Source: an uncultured Bacillota bacterium (lineage in GTDB: Bacteria; Sysuimicrobiota; Sysuimicrobiia; Sysuimicrobiales; Segetimicrobiaceae). From it: a DNA stretch of 64,000 nucleotides. Shown here one piece after another: positions 12,552 through 56,208 of the stretch (position 1 is the first letter of the stretch; each line of letters begins with the position of its first letter). The stretch covers positions 224,001 to 288,000 of the forward strand of contig CAWDRG010000015.1 in NCBI GenBank assembly GCA_963804645.1, in the 5' to 3' direction. The notes below the pieces were generated by a model. It worked only from the letters and a program-made list of their open reading frames with translations. It did no database searches and was not told where the DNA came from. The translations under genes were made by a program, and so were the position numbers.

Positions 12552-12905
12552 CTACTTCTCGTGAGGTTCCTTGGCGATCGCGCGTAGCAACCGATCCGTC
12601 TCCTTCCGCGACAGCGTTTCCATCTTGTGCACGATCCGCCGCAACCTGCGATGGTTTTGCAGCCACTGCCCGCAGCGCTGAGCTTGCGCGGCCGTGAGGC
12701 GCCTCGCGATCGACCGGCCGCGAATCTTATAGGTCCAATCGTAGTAAGGCCCGTGGAGCGTCGGTGGATCCGCCATGCAGTGGCAGCCGGGCTTGCCGCA
12801 TCGGGTGAATCGGCGCACGAGCGTGCCAGGCCGGACCCACCCGAGGCGTCCCACCGCGGCCTTGAGCGCCTCATACGTCCGTATCGCGTCTGTCGCGTCC
12901 GCCAT
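12552..12905 (-). CDS. Small Cys/His protein (DUF6788-like), IS1634 passenger
   Basis: Reads GTLVRRFTRCGKPGCHCMADPPTLHGPYYDW...WLQNHRRLRRIVHKMETLSRKETDRLLRA. Confidence 0.85.
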   Translation of the reverse strand: MADATDAIRTYEALKAAVGRLGWVRPGTLVRRFTRCGKPGCHCMADPPTLHGPYYDWTYKIRGRSIARRLTAAQAQRCGQWLQNHRRLRRIVHKMETLSRKETDRLLRAIAKEPHEK

Positions 12906-12927
12906 GTCCGCACACTCGAACAAATGC

Positions 12928-12968: not shown

Positions 12969-14293
12969 ATGGAGTCGTCAAGATGCCGTGCGGTCCCCAG
13001 GCGGATGACGCTCCGGCCCCGCGCTGGCCGTCGTCCCCACAGCGCTCCTCCGGGCGCGGTGCACCGGATCCATCACCTCGGGCCGCATCCGATCATCGCG
13101 CACTTCCTCGAACGCCTCACCCTGGAGCCCATCATTCGCGGCTGCGTGGGCACGCGCGCCAGGGGGTCGTCGATCACGCGCGCACGCTCGCCGTGCTGGT
13201 GCACAACCTGCTCGTCTCCCCCGGCCCGCTGTATCGGATCGCCACGTGGCTCGCGCCGGTGGAGCCCGCGGTGCTGGCGCTGACCCCCTCGCAGTACGCG
13301 GCGATCAACGACGATCGGGTGGCGCGGGCCCTGGATGCGCTCACCTCCGAACGGGGGCGCAGCATATGGTTCCGCTTGGCCTTGCGCATCATCAAGCAGT
13401 TTGAACTTGCGACGGAGCGGTTCCACCACGACACGACCACGGTCACGTTCCAGGGCGCCTACGCGACTGCCCACGGCAAGCCCCACATCACCCATGGGCA
13501 CAACAAAGATCACCGCCCGGACCTCAAGCAGCTCGTCTTCGGCCTCACCGCCACTGCCGATGGCGCAATCCCCGTGTGGCACGACGTCCATAGCGGCAAC
13601 CGCAGCGACGATACGGTGCACCGGAGCACCGTGGACGCCTTGCGGACGCTCGTGGGCCGCGCGGAGTTCATCTACGTGGCCGATGCCAAGCTCTGCACCC
13701 AGGACAATCTGCGGCATATCGCGGCCTATGGCGGGCAATTTGTCACCGTGATGCCGCGGACCTGGAAAGAAGACCATCACTTCCGCGATCGGCTGCGGGA
13801 CCATGGCATTCGGTGGCACCCCATTCTCCGCATCGCCAACCACCGGCACAAGGATGGTCCGCCAGACATCTTCGCGAGCTGTGCGGGTACGTACACGACC
13901 ACGGCCGACGGATATCGGATGATCTGGATCCGGAGCTCGCAGAAAGCGGTCGAGGACGCGCAGGCGCGGGAGCGACGCCTCGCCCAGGCCCAGGCCACGC
14001 TGCGGGAGTTCCAAGACAAACTACCGCGGCAGCGGCGACGGGATCGGACCCACGGGGGAATCCAGCGTGCGGTCACCAAGATTCTCCGCGAGACCGGCAC
14101 CCGGCCATTTCTCCAGGTGACCGTGAAGCGCCACGTCGAGCAGCGTCGCCACTATCTACGGCGCGGCCGGCCCACCGCCGAGACGCCGGTGGAGGTCGAA
14201 CGACACACGACCTACACGCTGGACGTGCGCCGCGATGGGCAGGCCCTGGCCCGCGAGCGGCGCACCGATGGGGTCTTCCCGCTCGTGACGAAC
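12969..14293 (+). pseudogene. IS1634 transposase, N-terminal part, frameshift near 13160
   Basis: Motifs INDDRVARALDAL, HHDTTTVTF, GHNKDHRPDLKQL and YVADAKL. Ends DGVFPLVTN at the IS3 junction. Confidence 0.92.
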
Positions 14294-14484
14294 TGAGGTT
14301 GCCCCGGTTCCGTGGAGGGTCAATCGCTTGAGTATCAGCCCTTTACCACCACCTCTCGCATGGTTCTTGTTGTTCTCTGCTCGGCCGCCGCACGTCGTCG
14401 TCTCTCGGCGGGGGTATCTGGATGTCTTCCCCCTCTCATAGAATCGCTGTGAGCGCATCCTAGCCGCCTGCTTCGCTGAGCATT

Positions 14485-15300
14485 TCATCTCGACTGCGCT
14501 CCGCGGACGGCCGTTGGCGCTGTGACCCCCGCCGTTCGAATTCTGCGGGCGAGAGATATCCAGCGCAGAGTGACGCCGGTGGGAATTGTAGAAACCCTCG
14601 ATGTAATCGAAGAGCGCCAGCCGCGCTGCCTTCGCGTGGCGAACGTGTGCTGCTGTAAGAGCTCCGTCTTGAGCGACGCGAAGAAGGCTTCGGCGAGGGC
14701 ATTATCATACGCGTCGCCGACGGAGCCCATCGACGGCACGACGCCCGCGTCTTGGCAGCGCCGACTGAAGGTCAGGCTCGTGTACTGCGCGCCGCGATCG
14801 GAGTGATGCACGACGCCCGACCGCCGGCCGCCGGTTCCACACCGCCATGTTGAGCGCGTCCACGACCAGTTCGGTCCGCAGCGTGTCCGCCATCGCCCAG
14901 CCGACGATCCGGCGACTCCACGCATCCAGCACCGTCGCCAGATAGAGCCACCCTTCCGCGGTGGGCACGTACGTGATGTCTGCGACCCAGAGCTGATCGG
15001 GCGCGGAGGCCGTAAAATTCCCGCTTCACGAGGTCCGGCGCCGCGGCCGCCTCGCGATCCTGCCGCGTGGTGCCACGGTACCGTCGCCGCTGGGCGCCCG
15101 CCAGTCCGGCCGCGCGCATCAGACCGCGCGACCCGTTTCCGCCCACAGCTGGAGGCCTGCGCCTGGAGCTCGGCATGGATCCGCGGCGCCCCGTAGGTTC
15201 CCGGCTCTCCTCATGAATCGCTTGGATCTGCGCGAGCAGGCCTTGATCCGCCTGCGCCCGCGCCGAGGGTGGACGATCCACCACGCGTAGAACCCGCTGG
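14485..15300 (-). pseudogene. IS3 OrfB integrase core, 3' part, several frameshifts
   Basis: Motifs SGFYAW, PTAEGWLYLATVLDAWSRRIVGW, HHSDRGAQYTS and DNALAEAFFASLKTE. Confidence 0.9.
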
Positions 15301-15310
15301 GACAGTGGCT

Positions 15311-17370
15311 TCATACTACACCTCCGGCAGTAGCCTTTTGGAGTGACGGTTTGAGGTGCACGGGGGTGGCGGTCCTCTGGCGACACGCCTCTTCGACCGC
15401 CGGAGAAAAAGGAACACACAAGCGACCGCTCGTGTCGCGACGCGCTGCAAGCTTGCCTGCGTGGATCCAATCGTATACTGTCCATTTGCTGACCCCCAGT
15501 CGGCGGACAACCTCGCAGACCGTCAGCTCTCCTGGGCGAGGCTGAAAGGACGATGCAGGAATGTGGTAGGTGTGGCGGATCCAGCGGACAGATTTCACAT
15601 CAAATGGCCGCCCCCCTTTCCGGGTCATTCCCGCCGTGTTGAGTGCGGTGACGATCTCATCATCCTGCTGCATCGCCAGCGCCCGAATCAGATCGACGAC
15701 CGCACCCGGCGTCCGTTGAAGATCGCTGGCTGAGGCAGGGCGCTGGACGACGAGCTCCTCAGTCGCACCCGAGCGCCAGCGAATGCCGACGCCTACACGC
15801 GCACTGCCTGGAGCGGACCGTATCGTTACGTCCGCGACGAGCGCGCGAAGAATCCGCTTGCGGTCTGGGGCCGAGGTCGTAGGAGCAGCCCACAACGCGG
15901 GCACGTTGCGAGCGAGCGCCTCCAATTCTTGGCGCGATGGCAGCGGCGGCGCCTCCGCGCGCGCCCCCGCTAACGCGGTTTCCGCTTCCGCCAATGCGAC
16001 GAGCGCAGTTTCCCATCGTTGCTCCAGGCTCCGCGCCACAAGGCGGTTCTCCGGCTCACACTGATGGAACGCTCGCTCCGCCCGCGCCGCCTCATAGCGC
16101 GCCCGCTCCACCGGGAGTTCAGCGGCCCGGATGCGATTGGTCCGTCGTGCTGCGATCTCATCGGCGGCCTGGAGTGCCAGAGCAATCTGGTCTGTCGTGA
16201 CCACGTCTAACATCCGCCGGGCCACGGCATCATCGATCACATCCGCCCGAACCGTGCGACACTGCGGAGTCTGGAGGTGCTCGACACGGGAATAGGAACA
16301 ATCGTAGGCGGCCTTTCCGGAGGCATAGGAAGCATACCTCGGCGTCATCATCCGGCCACAGCCGCCGCACACGACGATCCCTTGCAGCAGCGCCTCGCCT
16401 TCCCGCGCAGGGCGTGCGCCTCCGCTCGTGTGGTTATGCGCCAACCGGTCCAGATTTGCAAGATAGGTCTCCCAGCTGATGTACGCGGGGTGATGGTGAG
16501 GGAGAACCACAAGCCATTCCTCCCGCGGAAGCTCTACTCGCTTCCGCCGAATTGAGCCATCCGGCTGTACGATGCGCCGGCATCGGTATCGTCCAAAGAC
16601 GTAGGTCCCAGCATAGACCGGGTTGGAAAGCATGCCAAGCACCCGGTAGTACGTGAGCCGGCCCCACCGGATCTCTCCCGTCCAGACGCCCCCGTGCACT
16701 CGCCGAGGAAACGGACGCCGGCGAAAGATGCCCGCCGCGCCATATGCTGATCCGCTGGCCTCGAACGCGGCGAAGACGTCTGTGACGGCCTGCCGGATCT
16801 CCTCGTCCAAGTCCATCACGGTACGGCCGTCCTGATCATACACGTAGCCGACTGGCAGCGGAACGCGTAATTCACCACGGGCCGCCGCGGCACGTTTCGA
16901 CTCCTGCAACCGCCCGGCGAGGATATGAAGTTCTGCTTCGGACATTGCGCCCTTCAAGCCCAACAGGAGCCTGTCGTTAAAATGTTGCAGATTGTACACG
17001 CCGTCGGCATCGATGATCAGCGTGTCCGTCAGGTTGCAGAATTCCAACAATCGTTGGAGGTCCGCGGAACTGCGGGCTAACCGCGAGACCTCCAACCCCA
17101 AGATGGCGCCGACCTCGCCCAGGCACACCCGACTGACGAGCTCCTGAAACCCCGCACGGGTGGTGCCGCTGCGACCGGACAGGCCCAGATCGGCATCGAT
17201 CACGAGGATCTTGGATGCTTCCCACCCCAATCGGGTGGCTTCCTCCGCCAGTGCATACTGCCGGGCGGTGGACTCGGTGTGTTCGCGCACCTGGGTCATC
17301 GTGGACTGTCGCACATACACGATTGCCAGACGCTCCGGTGAGTGGGCGTGATCGTCCTCGCGTCGCTCAT
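15311..17370 (-). CDS. Large serine recombinase (resolvase, recombinase and zinc-ribbon domains, C-terminal HTH)
   Basis: Motifs AIVYVRQST, DADLGLSG, EVSRLARS, NPVYAG and LLQGIVVCGGCG. The likely start ATG 17370 (MSDARTITPTH) needs one extra G near 17335. Confidence 0.93.
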
Positions 17371-17455
17371 GCGCGTTCCCCCCGGCGGCGAGCGCGGCCT
17401 CGAGCATGTTGGCCAGCGGCGCCACGAGTTCGCTCGTCGCGCCGCTGAACCCAAC

Positions 17456-17800
17456 TCAGGTCAGCTCCCCGCGGGTCAGCAGTTCCAGGTTGATCGCCGA
17501 GATCTCCGCCAGCGTCGCCTCGATGCGGGCGGTGAGCATGACCCGGCGGCGTACCGCCGCCGCCAGCGCCGCCGGAATATACAGGAGACGCCGTCCGTTC
17601 CCGCCGGACCGTCAGGAACACGTACGGACCGTGCAGCTCCCCCGCGCGCACCGGCAGCCCGGTTTCCCACACCGCCGGTGCTGGATTACCAGCGCCCCGT
17701 GCATGACCGCCTCGAGCGTCGGGAGGCTGCGTGCCCGTTGGGTCCGGCGCGCGCGTAATTGCCTCGCGCTGAGCTTGGCGAGTGGTATCTTTTGTATCAT
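17456..17800 (-). CDS. Third DUF6788-like Cys/His protein, two compensating 1-nt frameshifts
   Basis: Reads MIQKIPL...GALVIQHRRCGKPGCRCARG / ELHGPYVFLTV / RRLLYIP...EISAINLELL. Start and stop are in the same frame. Confidence 0.75.
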
Positions 17801-17838
17801 TGGTACCAAAGATATCACCTGCCGCGGGAAACGTCAAG
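17782..17838 (-). promoter_or_regulatory. Promoter of the DUF6788-recombinase unit with a long imperfect palindrome
   Basis: Minus strand TTGACG-17 nt-TATCTT. The palindrome GTGATATCTTTGGTACCAATGATACAAAAGATACCAC covers the -10 and the ATG. Confidence 0.65.
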
Positions 17839-17839
17839 G

Positions 17840-18112
17840 GGTGCGACAGCACCGCCACCACGCGGAGCACCTCCACCAGAATGGAGGCGGTGAGAGGGTG
17901 TGGCTCCGGAGGGGCGCCGCGATCGGTAAAAGCTTCTGGCAACGCAATACTGCCGGCTGGCCCGGCATCACAAATGTAGATACGTCCACGAGTGGCGTAG
18001 CGGCGTGTGACCAGTATGGGAAGTCGCTGGTCCCTCAGCGGATGAAACGGATGGGTGACAACGAGGGAATCCGAAAGACTACTGACTGCACTCGTAGTTT
18101 GCGTGGACCGTC
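17840..18112 (-). CDS. Y4bD/Y4pK (DUF5372)-like small protein lacking a start codon in the integrated state
   Basis: Reads VVTHPFHPL...SIALPEAFTD...LVEVLRVVAVL. No in-frame ATG/GTG/TTG between the element end and the THPFHP motif. The 3' end is uncertain. Confidence 0.7.
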
Positions 18113-18189
18113 GGGGGAAACACCCAACACCCGGGCGAGCGTGGCGACGTGATGCGCGGCCTTCTCCTGTTGCATGAACGTAAACCCCG

Positions 18190-18489
18190 CTACGGGGTCG
18201 AGTTCGTTTCCCTGGCAAAGAAGGCCGCGGCTTTTCGGAGGATCTCGCGCTCTTCCCGCAAGATCCGGACTTCACGACGCAAGCGCCGCACCTCAGCGTG
18301 TTCCTCGGTCGTCAATCCATCGGTGCGCTTCCCGCGGTCGAGCTCATCCTGTTTCAGCCACGTGTAGAGCGACTGCTCCGACACTCCCAGATCCTTCGCA
18401 ATGCGCGCACGCGACTTCCCGGATTCTCGAACCAACCGGACCGCTTCCTCTCGAAACTGCCGTGCATACGGCGGTCGACTCTTTGGCAC
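18190..18489 (-). CDS. IS3 OrfA
   Basis: Reads PPYARQFREEAVRLV...IAKDLGVS...LREEREILRKAAAFFARE. Confidence 0.95.
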   Translation of the reverse strand: MPKSRPPYARQFREEAVRLVRESGKSRARIAKDLGVSEQSLYTWLKQDELDRGKRTDGLTTEEHAEVRRLRREVRILREEREILRKAAAFFARETNSTP

Positions 18490-18973: not shown

Positions 18974-19040
18974 GCCTCCCCAAGAGTCCCCGAGAAAATC
19001 GGGAGACTTCGCTTCGCGACTTGCGGAATGTCGGACACAT

Positions 19041-19880
19041 GTGTCCGGTACAACCTGTTTTACCTATGTGTGCAGCCCATAAAGCCATACACTCAGTCGG
19101 TGAGAGTCCGACCCGCGGAGTCGCCCAACTTGCCGCGGTAGTGTTGTCCGGCGTCTCGAAGGAGGTGACTCGCGAGACGGAAGCCCGGACGTACAAGTCT
19201 CGGCGGCCCGGCAGAGATATAAAGGCCGAGGTCGGTGGCCCAGGAGACGAGCGATGGATGGGGCCGCAACATGAAGTGAACACTGCAGCGTCGTTATTCA
19301 GGCCCACTCAGAGCTCCGGTAACGGAGTGCTCAGCGCCACAGTGGGAATGAGGGTGCCAAGTTTCTACATAGGGGACGAAGGCCAGTGTGGTTGCGGAAG
19401 AAGCTGGGCGTGTGCACGCAACCAGCCCTCCGGCGTAGGGGTGGCGGCAACATCCAAAGGGTGGATGGTCAAAGCGGGGAAGGGCTCTCACCCGTGAGGC
19501 CAGTGATATAACCGACTTCACTCGGGAAGTTCACTGGTGGGGGAGAGTCTGGCGCATGAGGCCGTAGGAGCGATGATCGCTCCGATAACAAGGAGCGGGA
19601 GCAAAGGGCCTCTGGGAGCAGGCCAGCGTTGGAGAAGGAGAGGGTGCGGGTGCTGATAACGCGCTCGGGCTACCGCCAAGATCCGGACCGACGCTGTAGG
19701 CTGCAGCAAACCAATCGCTCCCCAGGTACAGGCTGGGAAGGATCGGGAACGCTGCAACTGAGCGCGTGCTCTTCCAGCCGGATTGGGGAAAACCCGCTAT
19801 CCGGTTGATAGGGGGCGGGGTGGAACCGTGGTCAGGCTCCTTAACGGTAACCTGACCGGCGCGCCACCCTGCTACCCGAC
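19041..19880 (+). ncRNA. ORF-less group II intron
   Basis: DIII-like GAGGCCGTAGGAGCG...GGAGCAAAGGGCCTC, DV AGCCGGATTGGGGAAAACCCGCTATCCGGTT, and DVI ending CTACCCGAC. The 5' end GTGTCC is less certain. No RT ORF. Confidence 0.85.
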
Positions 19881-55824: not shown

Positions 55825-56208
55825 TATTCTTCGTCCACGCTGGACCAGATCTTTGCGGCGGTGGCGGACCCGACGCGGCGCACGATTCTCGATGTCCTCG
55901 CGCGCGGGCCCGCGAAGGTCACCGAGATCGCGCGGCCATTTCCCGTCTCCCTGAATGCGATCTCGAAGCACATCAAGACCTTGGAGCGCGCTGGGCTGAT
56001 CCGCCGTGAGGTGGTGGGCCGCGAGCACTACTGCCATCTCGAACCGCGGGCCCTGCATCCGGCCACCTCCTGGCTCGAGCACCACCGCGAGTTCTGGGAG
56101 ACACGCTTGGACGCGCTCGAACGGCACCTCGCGGCCAAGCGGAAGCGTGAGCACGGTGACGGCCGGCCATCCGGGCGGCACGCACACACCCCTGCGTGGA
56201 GGCCTTGA
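55816..56208 (+). CDS. ArsR/SmtB-family regulator
   Basis: Motifs FAAVADPTRRTIL and ISKHIKTLERAGLI. Confidence 0.93.
   Translation: MVEYSSSTLDQIFAAVADPTRRTILDVLARGPAKVTEIARPFPVSLNAISKHIKTLERAGLIRREVVGREHYCHLEPRALHPATSWLEHHREFWETRLDALERHLAAKRKREHGDGRPSGRHAHTPAWRP

Follow-up and report, generated by a model that had tools for sequence, protein, structure and literature searches.

A serine-recombinase element carries its attP site within the first codons of its own DUF5372 gene, a candidate cofactor gene gated by excision

The window, a stretch of 64,000 nucleotides from an uncultured Bacillota bacterium, contains an LSR (large serine recombinase) element of ca. 2.8 kb, which spans positions 15301-18112 plus a 2-bp CC crossover core. 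At one end of this element there is a DUF5372 gene that has no start codon; at the other end, behind the LSR gene, there is a ribosome-binding site and a start codon that join the DUF5372 frame when the two ends are brought together. The same start-less layout recurs in 44 sequence clusters from several phyla. As the explanation of the whole we favor, as probable, an IS-like element moved by its LSR, in which the split DUF5372 gene would encode a cofactor gated by the state of the element.

All features of the element lie on the minus strand, in the order DUF5372, DUF6788 and LSR, and the host gene of the window copy is IS3 orfB. The orfA gene (recognized by Pfam HTH_Tnp_1) and the portion of orfB that lies 5′ of the insertion point occupy positions 18115-18489, while the 3′ part of orfB, which from the sequence and its open reading frames is itself frameshifted, occupies positions 14400-15298. 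The second copy in this genome (G000:C11:12985-15805) is located inside an IS110 transposase gene, and since its flanks are unlike those of the window copy, the comparison fixes the ends of the element. The two copies differ by 6 substitutions and 4 single-base gaps across 2.8 kb. The product of the LSR gene (15311-17370) matches PF00239 (Resolvase, 3.9e-19), PF07508 (Recombinase, 1.7e-11) and PF13408 (Zn_ribbon_recom, 1.6e-10), HTH_17 was also matched in the Pfam search, and the LSR of the related locus L013 has the same domain set. The element therefore combines the resolvase catalytic, recombinase and zinc beta-ribbon domains of an LSR with a 2-bp core and imperfect inverted half-sites.

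The core dinucleotide at the right end (attR, 15299-15300) reads CC on the minus strand, is common to both copies and agrees with the empty-site contig described below; that at the left end (attL, 18113-18114) is supported by the two copies, the empty site and the cores of homologues. Each half-site is 19 nt long. The right one (15301-15319) contains an ATG codon and matches the family right-arm consensus at 17/19 positions; the left one (18094-18112), which follows the family consensus for its arm and forms an inverted repeat with the right one, also encodes the first leader residues, RRSTQT. The original prediction of an attP-like imperfect inverted repeat around a CC core was borne out, with 12 of 20 positions matching in the window.

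It had also been proposed that excision would join translation signals overlapping the recombinase stop to a start-less ORF at the other end of the element. Reading of the sequence confirmed the signals: the Shine-Dalgarno stretch GGAGGT (15325-15320) lies 5 nt upstream of an ATG (15314-15312), which overlaps the LSR stop codon TGA (15313-15311) as ATGA. Joined across the junction, GGAGGT and this ATG are in frame with the start-less DUF5372 ORF. The position of the circle junction is fixed by an empty IS3 site in short-read contigs and by the frames of both target genes. The empty site, with five G, is present in two short-read contigs of run X3, in which IS3 is uninterrupted; these contigs show that empty sites exist, and do not imply excision of the window copy itself. 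Both target ORFs, IS3 orfB and the IS110 transposase, regain their frames after excision in silico, the IS3 frame VSPSGFYAW requiring five C and the IS110 frame QLDTI-PGVNQ at the second copy requiring three C. The empty IS3 site, the IS3 frame and the IS110 frame are three independent routes, each of which gives three C in the attP run, and the junction is thus in frame. A change in the lengths of the G runs at 15299-15301 and 18113-18117 had been named as something that could overturn this reading. Short-read contigs show no gaps over positions 15294-15767 and four gaps over positions 17102-18142, every one of them a C insertion (behind 17334, 17594, 17599 and 17638). Since these gaps fall elsewhere, both G runs stand.

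The four missing bases affect the neighboring genes of the window copy. The LSR gene lacks the C behind 17334, as a result of which ORF calling gives 15311-17425 in a shifted frame; the frameshift is missing from the C11 copy and from the short-read contigs. The DUF6788 gene (17456-17800, PF20586) lacks the other three, behind 17594, 17599 and 17638, and when all four bases are restored in silico it becomes a single ORF that ends in GELT followed by the stop codon. A consensus scan retrieved 2 promoter-like sites, with 0.5 expected; the only one noted, TTGACG-17-TATCTT (17809-17837), is internal to the element and adjoins the DUF6788 ATG on its upstream side, and an inverted repeat straddles this start codon. 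By eye, the layouts of −35 and −10 elements, inverted repeat and ATG look alike in several lineages; an automated promoter scan between DUF5372 and DUF6788 was positive in just 3 of 43 cases.

The DUF5372 body occupies positions 17826-18113, with codons 1-19 forming an N-terminal leader that is followed by a THPFHP motif and a domain predicted to consist of a barrel plus a helix. The window sequence matches PF17342 with 37.8 bits (cut-off 25), profile position 1 corresponding to residue 19 of the element-internal ORF. The frame is open from 18113 downwards and contains no ATG, GTG or TTG ahead of THPFHP, so that the description of the split gene as DUF5372-like and start-less holds. The usual stop codon is absent in both copies of this genome, and in the window the frame stays open to 17367, ca. 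230 codons beyond the motif.

One may ask whether DUF5372 is simply a start-less gene in decay, and whether the window copy, with its stop missing too, is dead. The missing stop in both copies and the four frameshifts in genes next to the window copy would fit such decay. Across the family, a stop follows the motif at a distance of 72-95 codons in 40 of 44 clusters, the start-less layout itself recurs in all 44, and both DUF6788 and LSR are intact in the C11 copy and in short-read contigs. In addition, dN/dS is 0.20 in the domain and 0.05 over the four codons preceding the motif, and THPFHP is invariant in 45 aligned sequences, all of which points to purifying selection on the DUF5372 domain and makes decay very improbable. 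For the leader, dN/dS is 0.91 at codons 1-7 and 1.62 at codons 8-15, with low dS; judging from these values, protein-level constraint on the leader codons is not evident, and the ATG and the open frame therefore lie in DNA that is also constrained as attP.

The family set comprised 80 loci, of which 66, in 38 sequence clusters, allowed both ends to be analyzed; starts and stops were analyzed in 44 clusters. As the clusters are related, the counts given here overstate independence. Three ways of locating the junction were dropped: the longest common substring of both ends was too noisy; inverted-repeat scoring with 12-nt arms chose a shifted register for many loci, placing 21 in frame, another 21 at +1 and 7 at +2; and with 20-nt arms some loci, including L002, L016, L018 and L043, were still mis-registered. 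In the final placement, each arm was anchored to a consensus. Crossover dinucleotides anchored independently at each end were identical in 62/66 loci and fell into six types (CC 44, GA 7, GC 5, CG 2, TC 2 and GG 2).

Joining the ends of homologues in silico gave an NTG start at the recombinase end in frame with THPFHP in 38/38 clusters (ATG in 30, TTG in 8), and the random frame that would have spoken against the original prediction was not seen. A Shine-Dalgarno-like stretch precedes this start in 37 of the 38. Left arm and motif are 56, 59 or 62 nt apart, and each of these spacings equals 2 mod 3. Between the core and the motif, none of the 44 clusters has a stop in the DUF5372 frame, and the other two frames contain stops in 6 and 24 clusters. 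A lineage of the window's own phylum with a GG core, L215, has a junction that is likewise in frame. At the distant locus L214, whose target is an IS21 gene, the LSR stop is followed by a Shine-Dalgarno stretch and an ATG, and the junction, as sequenced, is one base out of frame; its host frame is also off by one base and is not restored. The other distant DUF5372 loci were on short contigs with the right end missing (L205-L207) or contained no motif (L216). A cruder GC3-phase test of host frames, which makes no use of the arms, placed 35/46 loci in frame, against a chance expectation of one third; the window, in which IS3 is frameshifted, is among the 11 misses, and some rows are invalid in either direction, a wrong ATG having been picked (e.g., in actinomycete-clade loci).

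Two parts of the original prediction call for qualification. An internal start codon in homologues had been named as something that would speak against it: between the core and the motif, 12/44 clusters, among them that of the window, contain no ATG, GTG or TTG, and the remaining 32 have a candidate internal start, an in-frame TTG or GTG that precedes the motif by 1-6 codons. The prediction further stated that translation is coupled to that of the LSR; the ATGA overlap is common and is not universal, since in one actinomycete clade the Shine-Dalgarno stretch and ATG are found 98-146 nt or more past the end of the LSR gene. Because both signals persist at such distances, the LSR coding sequence does not account for them.

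Could the GGAGG-ATG and the open frame be mere side effects of an attP half-site and of indel-free descent, with DUF5372 translated from integrated copies by way of an internal TTG or GTG close to the motif, a start codon in the target gene or read-through from it? The two arms are symmetric at positions 1-6 and 11-19, and the ATG mirrors a CAT of the left arm. If symmetry were the reason, both arms should be conserved alike; however, the left-arm mirror of the triplet is incompatible with a start in 8/44 clusters and the right arm, always ATG or TTG, in 0/38, and conservation of GGAGG is confined to the right arm and persists where more than 100 nt separate it from the LSR stop. Since the conservation of triplet and GGAGG thus differs between the arms, attP symmetry does not account for the ATG and the Shine-Dalgarno stretch. 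The leader values (dN/dS of about 1 or more, with low dS) and the TTG or GTG codons at −6 to −1 in 32/44 clusters speak for translation from integrated copies, gene callers begin homologues at such codons or at ATGs in the flank, and some reverse-transcriptase flanks accidentally provide an in-frame ATG. On the other hand, the element offers no canonical start in the 12 clusters mentioned above, with the window's among them, an in-frame stop lies directly outside the boundary in many loci, and the host frame relative to DUF5372 varies with the target, some GG-core lineages even being antisense to it. Taken together, we regard this by-product reading as unlikely.

The targets themselves are parts of other mobile elements. 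A test of 24 target ORFs identified 18 reverse transcriptases, 3 ISL3 transposases and 1 tyrosine integrase, and the targets of relatives are mostly reverse transcriptases of group II introns. Several genomes contain multiple copies of the element. The antisense orientation in GG-core lineages was seen in 17/120 among the matches listed.

The circular attP form was not seen in Logan contigs, the genome, the collected loci or metagenome contigs, and as assemblies drop rare forms, this is a weak absence. Specifically, no "go back" joint was present in Logan contigs of four runs (X1, X2, X3 and X7), 0/66 computed junctions were found in the genome or the collected loci, and a junction motif search of metagenome contigs gave 0 matches. 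Among the runs listed as carrying the element, none was of RNA. At least 120 right arms were retrieved from metagenome contigs, a few of them likely chance matches, and none of those listed was then followed by a left arm. That the junction DNA was found in neither the genome, the collected loci nor the metagenome contigs would also be consistent with translation from integrated copies. Expression of DUF5372 from the circle alone is what we infer from the anatomy of the element.

DUF5372 is predicted to be a small SH3-like barrel with a C-terminal helix. A Foldseek search of the PDB with DUF5372 produced no match at E ≤ 0.001; VIA-align gave Z values of 5-6 to SH3, KOW, PsaE and NdhS barrels, indicating a generic fold. 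A model of the complex of LSR and DUF5372 scored 0.65, and the best of three controls scored 0.00; a score of 0.65 is reached by 116/157 solved complexes and by 2/215 mismatched pairs, counts that apply only roughly here, since the alignments for the model were self-supplied. The runs share at least 71% of contacts, with a partner pLDDT of at least 67. In the model, THPFHP and the C-terminal helix contact LSR residues 324-329, 351, 353, 377-390 and 463-527, the zinc ribbon of the LSR being residues 318-374. DUF5372 is thereby predicted to sit at the zinc-ribbon/coiled-coil junction, the LSR surface used by directionality factors. In the accessible part of the source, phiC31 gp3, Bxb1 gp47 and SPbeta SprB are described as small, structurally diverse proteins that bind the junction of DBD2 (zinc ribbon) and coiled coil of the LSR and set direction (PMC12286644). 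The modeled place of DUF5372 is, as far as that description goes, the same, and the idea that DUF5372 is a directionality switch gains support from the model. We know of no sequence or fold relation between DUF5372 and these three factors. Expression of phage directionality factors is set by phage programs, whereas that of DUF5372 would be set by the topology of the element, and the direction of its effect may be the opposite.

The following mechanism would unite these observations. The 2.8-kb IS-like element would be moved by its LSR into short target sites inside the genes of other mobile elements. Its attP falls among codons 1-6 of its own DUF5372 gene, the right side carrying the Shine-Dalgarno stretch, the start codon and four further codons and the left half-site the next codons of a disordered leader, which runs into the conserved THPFHP domain. 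Integration thus leaves the translation signals at the opposite end of the element, behind the LSR gene, and a complete DUF5372 gene exists on the excised circle only; in the window, the ATGA overlap would couple its translation to that of the LSR. DUF5372 would then be a cofactor gated by the element state that reports "I am excised" to the recombinase; most likely, it would bias the LSR to integration or block the reverse reaction, and upon insertion the gene would be split again and the signal would decay. A more specific version, which we put forward tentatively, makes DUF5372 a "reverse" directionality factor whose synthesis depends on DNA topology: the LSR would excise the element, either by itself or together with DUF6788, only the circle would make DUF5372, the protein would clamp on the zinc-ribbon/coiled-coil junction and switch the LSR to integration mode, and insertion would reset the switch.

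The same split-gene anatomy would also accommodate a conventional factor that promotes excision, keeping the circle out of the vacated site for a while or acting in trans on other copies to produce a burst of excision. The predicted binding site is that of known excision factors, and the multiple copies found in several genomes are possible targets in trans. Yet blocking attP x attB recombination from every circle would bar re-insertion of a circle that has no replication gene (an argument from logic and not from data), and at the first excision there would be nothing to supply the factor. We therefore consider an excision-promoting role improbable, and the integration-biasing cofactor remains the reading that we prefer.

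Splitting of an element gene by integration has precedents. In SSV-type (fusellovirus, archaeal element) tyrosine integrases, according to the part of the source available, attP lies in a gene of the element, which is split by integration and intact on the circle only (PMC7253208). To that extent the two systems are alike; the split SSV-type gene, however, is the archaeal tyrosine integrase itself, cut in mid-gene, whereas here the LSR stays whole, its ORF ending before the core (stop at 15313-15311), and the accessory DUF5372 gene is cut between codons 5 and 6. In the integration-dependent immunity of mycobacteriophage BPs and its relatives, as set out in the available portion of the report, attP lies in a regulatory gene, whose integrated and free products differ (PMC4557955). 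There too, on that account, an attP within a gene lets the element sense its own state, but a tyrosine recombinase removes the 3′ end of a repressor gene, and a degradation tag with it, and both forms are translated; here the 5′ end is removed and an on/off response is expected. Unlike the BPs repressor as portrayed there, DUF5372 is predicted to bind the recombinase and not DNA operators. The attP at codons 5-6 of the DUF5372 gene lies in a non-repressor gene and is served by a serine recombinase. For the LSR (TnpX) transposons Tn4451 and Tn4453, Lyras and Rood are said to have reported in 2000 that a new expression signal arises at the circle joint, where −35 and −10 elements meet to form a promoter for the recombinase; IS circles likewise have junction promoters. 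The Tn4451-type joint assembles a recombinase promoter, while the one described here assembles the coding sequence of a putative cofactor.

Our literature searches returned no paper on DUF5372 or on DUF6788, and searches on genes reconstituted by circularization and on LSR elements in group II introns, at the level of titles and abstract openings, returned nothing on DUF5372 elements. The split start of DUF5372 is a variant of "attP inside a gene" for which we found no published description.

Serine integrases are prized for running in one direction, and to our knowledge it is not settled by what means small non-phage LSR elements can both excise and re-insert. A cofactor gene that is complete on the circle only would be a simple physical sensor by which the element perceives its own state, and, if confirmed, a useful part for engineering, namely a protein produced only once recombination has taken place. 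The uncharacterized DUF5372 and DUF6788 gain a testable role, and a widespread family of elements aimed at conserved motifs of other mobile elements is described. If the "reverse" factor proves true, these elements would carry a self-contained two-state device, widespread in soil bacteria, on elements that parasitize group II introns and insertion sequences.

The element (15301-18112 plus a 2-bp CC crossover core) lies inside orfB of an IS3 insertion sequence, and the minus strand is the coding strand for every element gene. On this strand, IS3 orfA and the first part of orfB (18489-18115) are followed by the left CC core (18114-18113) and the 19-nt left half-site (18112-18094), which doubles as the first codons of an ORF that has no start codon and matches Pfam DUF5372 from codon 19 (37.8 bits against a cut-off of 25). 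Next come a DUF6788 gene (17800-17456) and the gene of a large serine recombinase, LSR (17370-15311), with Resolvase, Recombinase, Zn_ribbon_recom and HTH_17 domains. At the right end, GGAGGT (15325-15320) precedes an ATG (15314-15312), which forms an ATGA overlap with the LSR stop and belongs to the 19-nt right half-site (15319-15301). Beyond this half-site come the second CC core (15300-15299) and the remainder of orfB. The frame of this host orfB (14400-15298) shifts soon after SGFYAWW and once more downstream, reflecting either a defective host IS or further single-base assembly errors.

A second copy of the element, at 12985-15805 of contig C11 of the source genome, has other flanks, which fixes the element ends. 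It splits QLDTI from PGVNQ in a transposase of the IS110 family. Compared with this C11 copy, the window copy has six substitutions and four single-C gaps, in which a C is missing from a C run (15867, 16040, 16931, 17270, 17334, 17453, 17594, 17599, 17638 and 17767 in total). At 10/10 of these places, short-read contigs from four public runs side with the C11 copy. The missing bases frameshift DUF6788 and LSR of the window copy; with the four restored, the frames of DUF6788 and of the LSR N-terminus are uninterrupted. Since the short reads back the C11 copy, an intact element is present in the genome, and the window copy has either been polished poorly or decayed slightly. A third, degraded relative (81% identical; contig C9, 1097319-1101868) has lost DUF5372 by deletion; part of its LSR and DUF6788 are joined straight to an IS110 fragment, and a long low-complexity stretch adjoins. 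A tblastn search of the genome revealed no DUF5372 copy beyond the two. A relative of the host IS3 on contig C19 (221071-223762; 72-74% identical) carries about 1.5 kb extra between the parts that flank the window insertion point, perhaps a separate insertion at this position. At least five copies of a repeat about 200 bp long, 97-99% identical, were also noted (window about 19035-19228; C11:12285-12496 and 129194-129403; C19:15280-15490 and 55909-56119); on C11 it adjoins the IS110 gene on its 3′ side and might represent the non-coding terminus of this IS.

The reading frame across the circle junction is set by the number of C in the run at attP, the circle-junction site, and three routes give three C. 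In two contigs of one short-read run, the empty IS3 site has five G, and the ends of the inserted copy have 3 and 5, leaving 3 for attP. The IS3 frame (VSPSGFYAW) requires five C. Finally, the C11 copy has 3 at each end, and restoring the IS110 frame takes three. The G-run lengths on which the original prediction depended were borne out, as short-read contigs span both ends without gaps. With this run length, the reading frame from the right-end ATG passes through four more codons into the left-end ORF without a shift, as had been proposed. The attP site sits inside codons 5-6 of the element's own accessory gene. Inside the window element, no ATG, GTG or TTG is found between the core and THPFHP, the invariant motif that opens the DUF5372 domain, and we infer that the gene is expressed from the circle only. 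No junction DNA was detected in the short-read contigs of four runs, the genome, the homologous loci or the metagenome contigs searched.

A protein search retrieved four DUF5372 homologues of 93-110 aa with a common leader motif (RRS.HT) and unlike N-termini. With an E-value limit of 0.001, a profile search gave 705 family members, whose gene-caller N-termini are scattered over internal TTG or GTG codons and flank ATGs, or truncated. A genome scan with one genome per species yielded 225 confirmed relatives. In every one of the best 80 of these 225 loci, the DUF5372 frame is open to about 19-21 codons upstream of THPFHP; beyond this boundary the sequence varies among copies of one genome, and in many loci an in-frame stop lies immediately outside. 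The right end is conserved as a purine-rich Shine-Dalgarno, 5-8 nt, ATG, 11 nt and the boundary. When each half-site was anchored to the consensus, both arms were found in 66 loci, and their core dinucleotides were identical in 62 (CC 44, GA 7, GC 5, CG 2, TC 2, GG 2) and disagreed in L007, L018, L050 and L057. The agreement of six core types at both ends validates the crossover assignment.

Clustering of the core-to-motif stretch at 90% identity produced 44 clusters, 38 of them with both ends. Joining the ends of homologues in silico, the test called for by the original prediction, gave an in-frame junction ORF in 38/38, with ATG as start codon in 30 and TTG in the other 8 (directly followed by ATG in five of the eight); a Shine-Dalgarno-like stretch is present in 37. 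L215, a locus from the phylum of the window with a GG core and outside the first set, is also in frame. Independently of half-sites, the target-gene codon phase on both flanks gives the in-frame value in 35/46 loci, against one third expected. In L214, a distant four-gene relative in an IS21 gene, a Shine-Dalgarno and ATG directly follow the LSR stop; as sequenced, its inferred junction is one base out of frame, and the same ends are also one base off the host frame. The DUF5372 ORF stops 72-95 codons past the motif in 40/44 clusters. In the window element this stop is missing, and the ORF runs about 230 codons beyond the motif, across DUF6788 and the LSR start in a different frame (17367-17826); the C11 copy and one homologous locus, L068, likewise lack the usual stop and run over the next genes.

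Among 24 right-flank target ORFs, 18 match RVT_1, mostly together with GIIM, and are entered at profile positions 17-19; three match DDE_Tnp_ISL3, one Phage_integrase and two nothing. GG-core lineages, 17/120 of the metagenome right ends among the matches listed, use the same reverse-transcriptase site in the opposite orientation. The core dinucleotide seems to set insertion orientation. Core types also pair with target families, GA with ISL3 transposases. DUF5372 is present in 7/94 genomes of the window's phylum, in 0/22 other genomes of its family and in 0/14 control genomes.

Could the right-end ATG be merely conserved attP DNA, the mirror of a left-arm CAT (His codon)? At the protein level, the leader shows no sign of constraint (dN/dS 0.91 over codons 1-7, 1.62 over codons 8-15, at low dS), the clusters are related to one another, and 32/44 have a TTG or GTG 1-6 codons upstream of the motif, all of which suit this explanation. 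However, the mirrored left-arm triplet varies (CAT 34, CAA 2, other 8 of 44), whereas the right arm has only ATG (30) or TTG (8) in 38 clusters, and GGAGG is kept on the right arm while its mirror positions on the left are variable. Shine-Dalgarno, ATG and arm persist in an actinomycete clade even though the LSR stop there is 98-146 nt or more further upstream, so the LSR coding sequence does not account for their retention; the GG-core lineages, antisense in the reverse-transcriptase gene, keep the same start, which is therefore not for expressing the target. The left arm-to-motif distance, too, takes the values 56, 59 and 62 nt, all equal to 2 modulo 3, and stops between core and motif occur in 0/44 clusters in frame versus 6/44 and 24/44 in the other two frames. 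The four codons before the motif (dN/dS 0.05) and the DUF5372 domain (0.20) are clearly coding.

An AlphaFold model of DUF5372 (mean pLDDT 83) combines a five-stranded SH3-like barrel with a C-terminal helix, preceded by a disordered leader; fold searches with it returned generic barrels only. The LSR of homologous locus L013 (alignment of 29 sequences) was modelled with its DUF5372 (40 sequences). The complex scored 0.65, against 0.00 for the best of three controls; this mark is reached by 116/157 solved complexes and 2/215 mismatched pairs, counts that are only rough here because the alignments were custom-supplied. Runs share at least 71% of contacts, with partner pLDDT of at least 67. THPFHP and the helix are predicted to contact LSR residues 324-329, 351 and 353 of the zinc ribbon (318-374), as well as 377-390 and 463-527, which flank a presumed coiled coil. 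As a prediction, the model supports binding of DUF5372 to the zinc-ribbon/coiled-coil region of LSR. This is the DBD2-CC junction, to which known directionality factors are reported to bind (PMC12286644).

Name searches of the literature for DUF5372 and DUF6788 found no papers. In Tn4451, a new signal reportedly arises at the circle joint. Element genes split by an attP inside them are known from SSV-type integrases (PMC7253208) and from integration-dependent immunity (PMC4557955). In the window element, by contrast, attP interrupts the gene of a putative recombinase cofactor in a serine-recombinase element, parting the translation start from the gene body.

Directly ahead of the DUF6788 gene the element has a promoter-like site and an inverted repeat. 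At 17785-17837 in the window, and in many loci just behind the DUF5372 stop, a conserved arrangement is found of -35-like and -10-like hexamers and an inverted repeat with the DUF6788 start codon in its loop, with no Shine-Dalgarno. This layout, present in several lineages and absent from those in which the end of DUF5372 and the following start codon overlap, suggests a leaderless transcript with an operator or hairpin controlling DUF6788 and LSR. A second full-length DUF6788 gene (12552-12923, minus strand; PF20586, 8e-30) stands head to head with a 437-aa transposase-like ORF (12983-14296, plus strand) that weakly matches DUF4277, so DUF6788 also travels with another type of mobile element.

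If the site upstream of DUF6788 is the element promoter, the integrated form would have DUF5372 ahead of that promoter, and DUF5372 would come after DUF6788 and LSR on the circle alone, where, in the window element, it would be the last cistron, coupled to LSR. An integration-blocking factor made from every circle would trap a non-replicating circle, which favours a factor of the opposite kind; our guess is that DUF5372 promotes integration or prevents re-excision.
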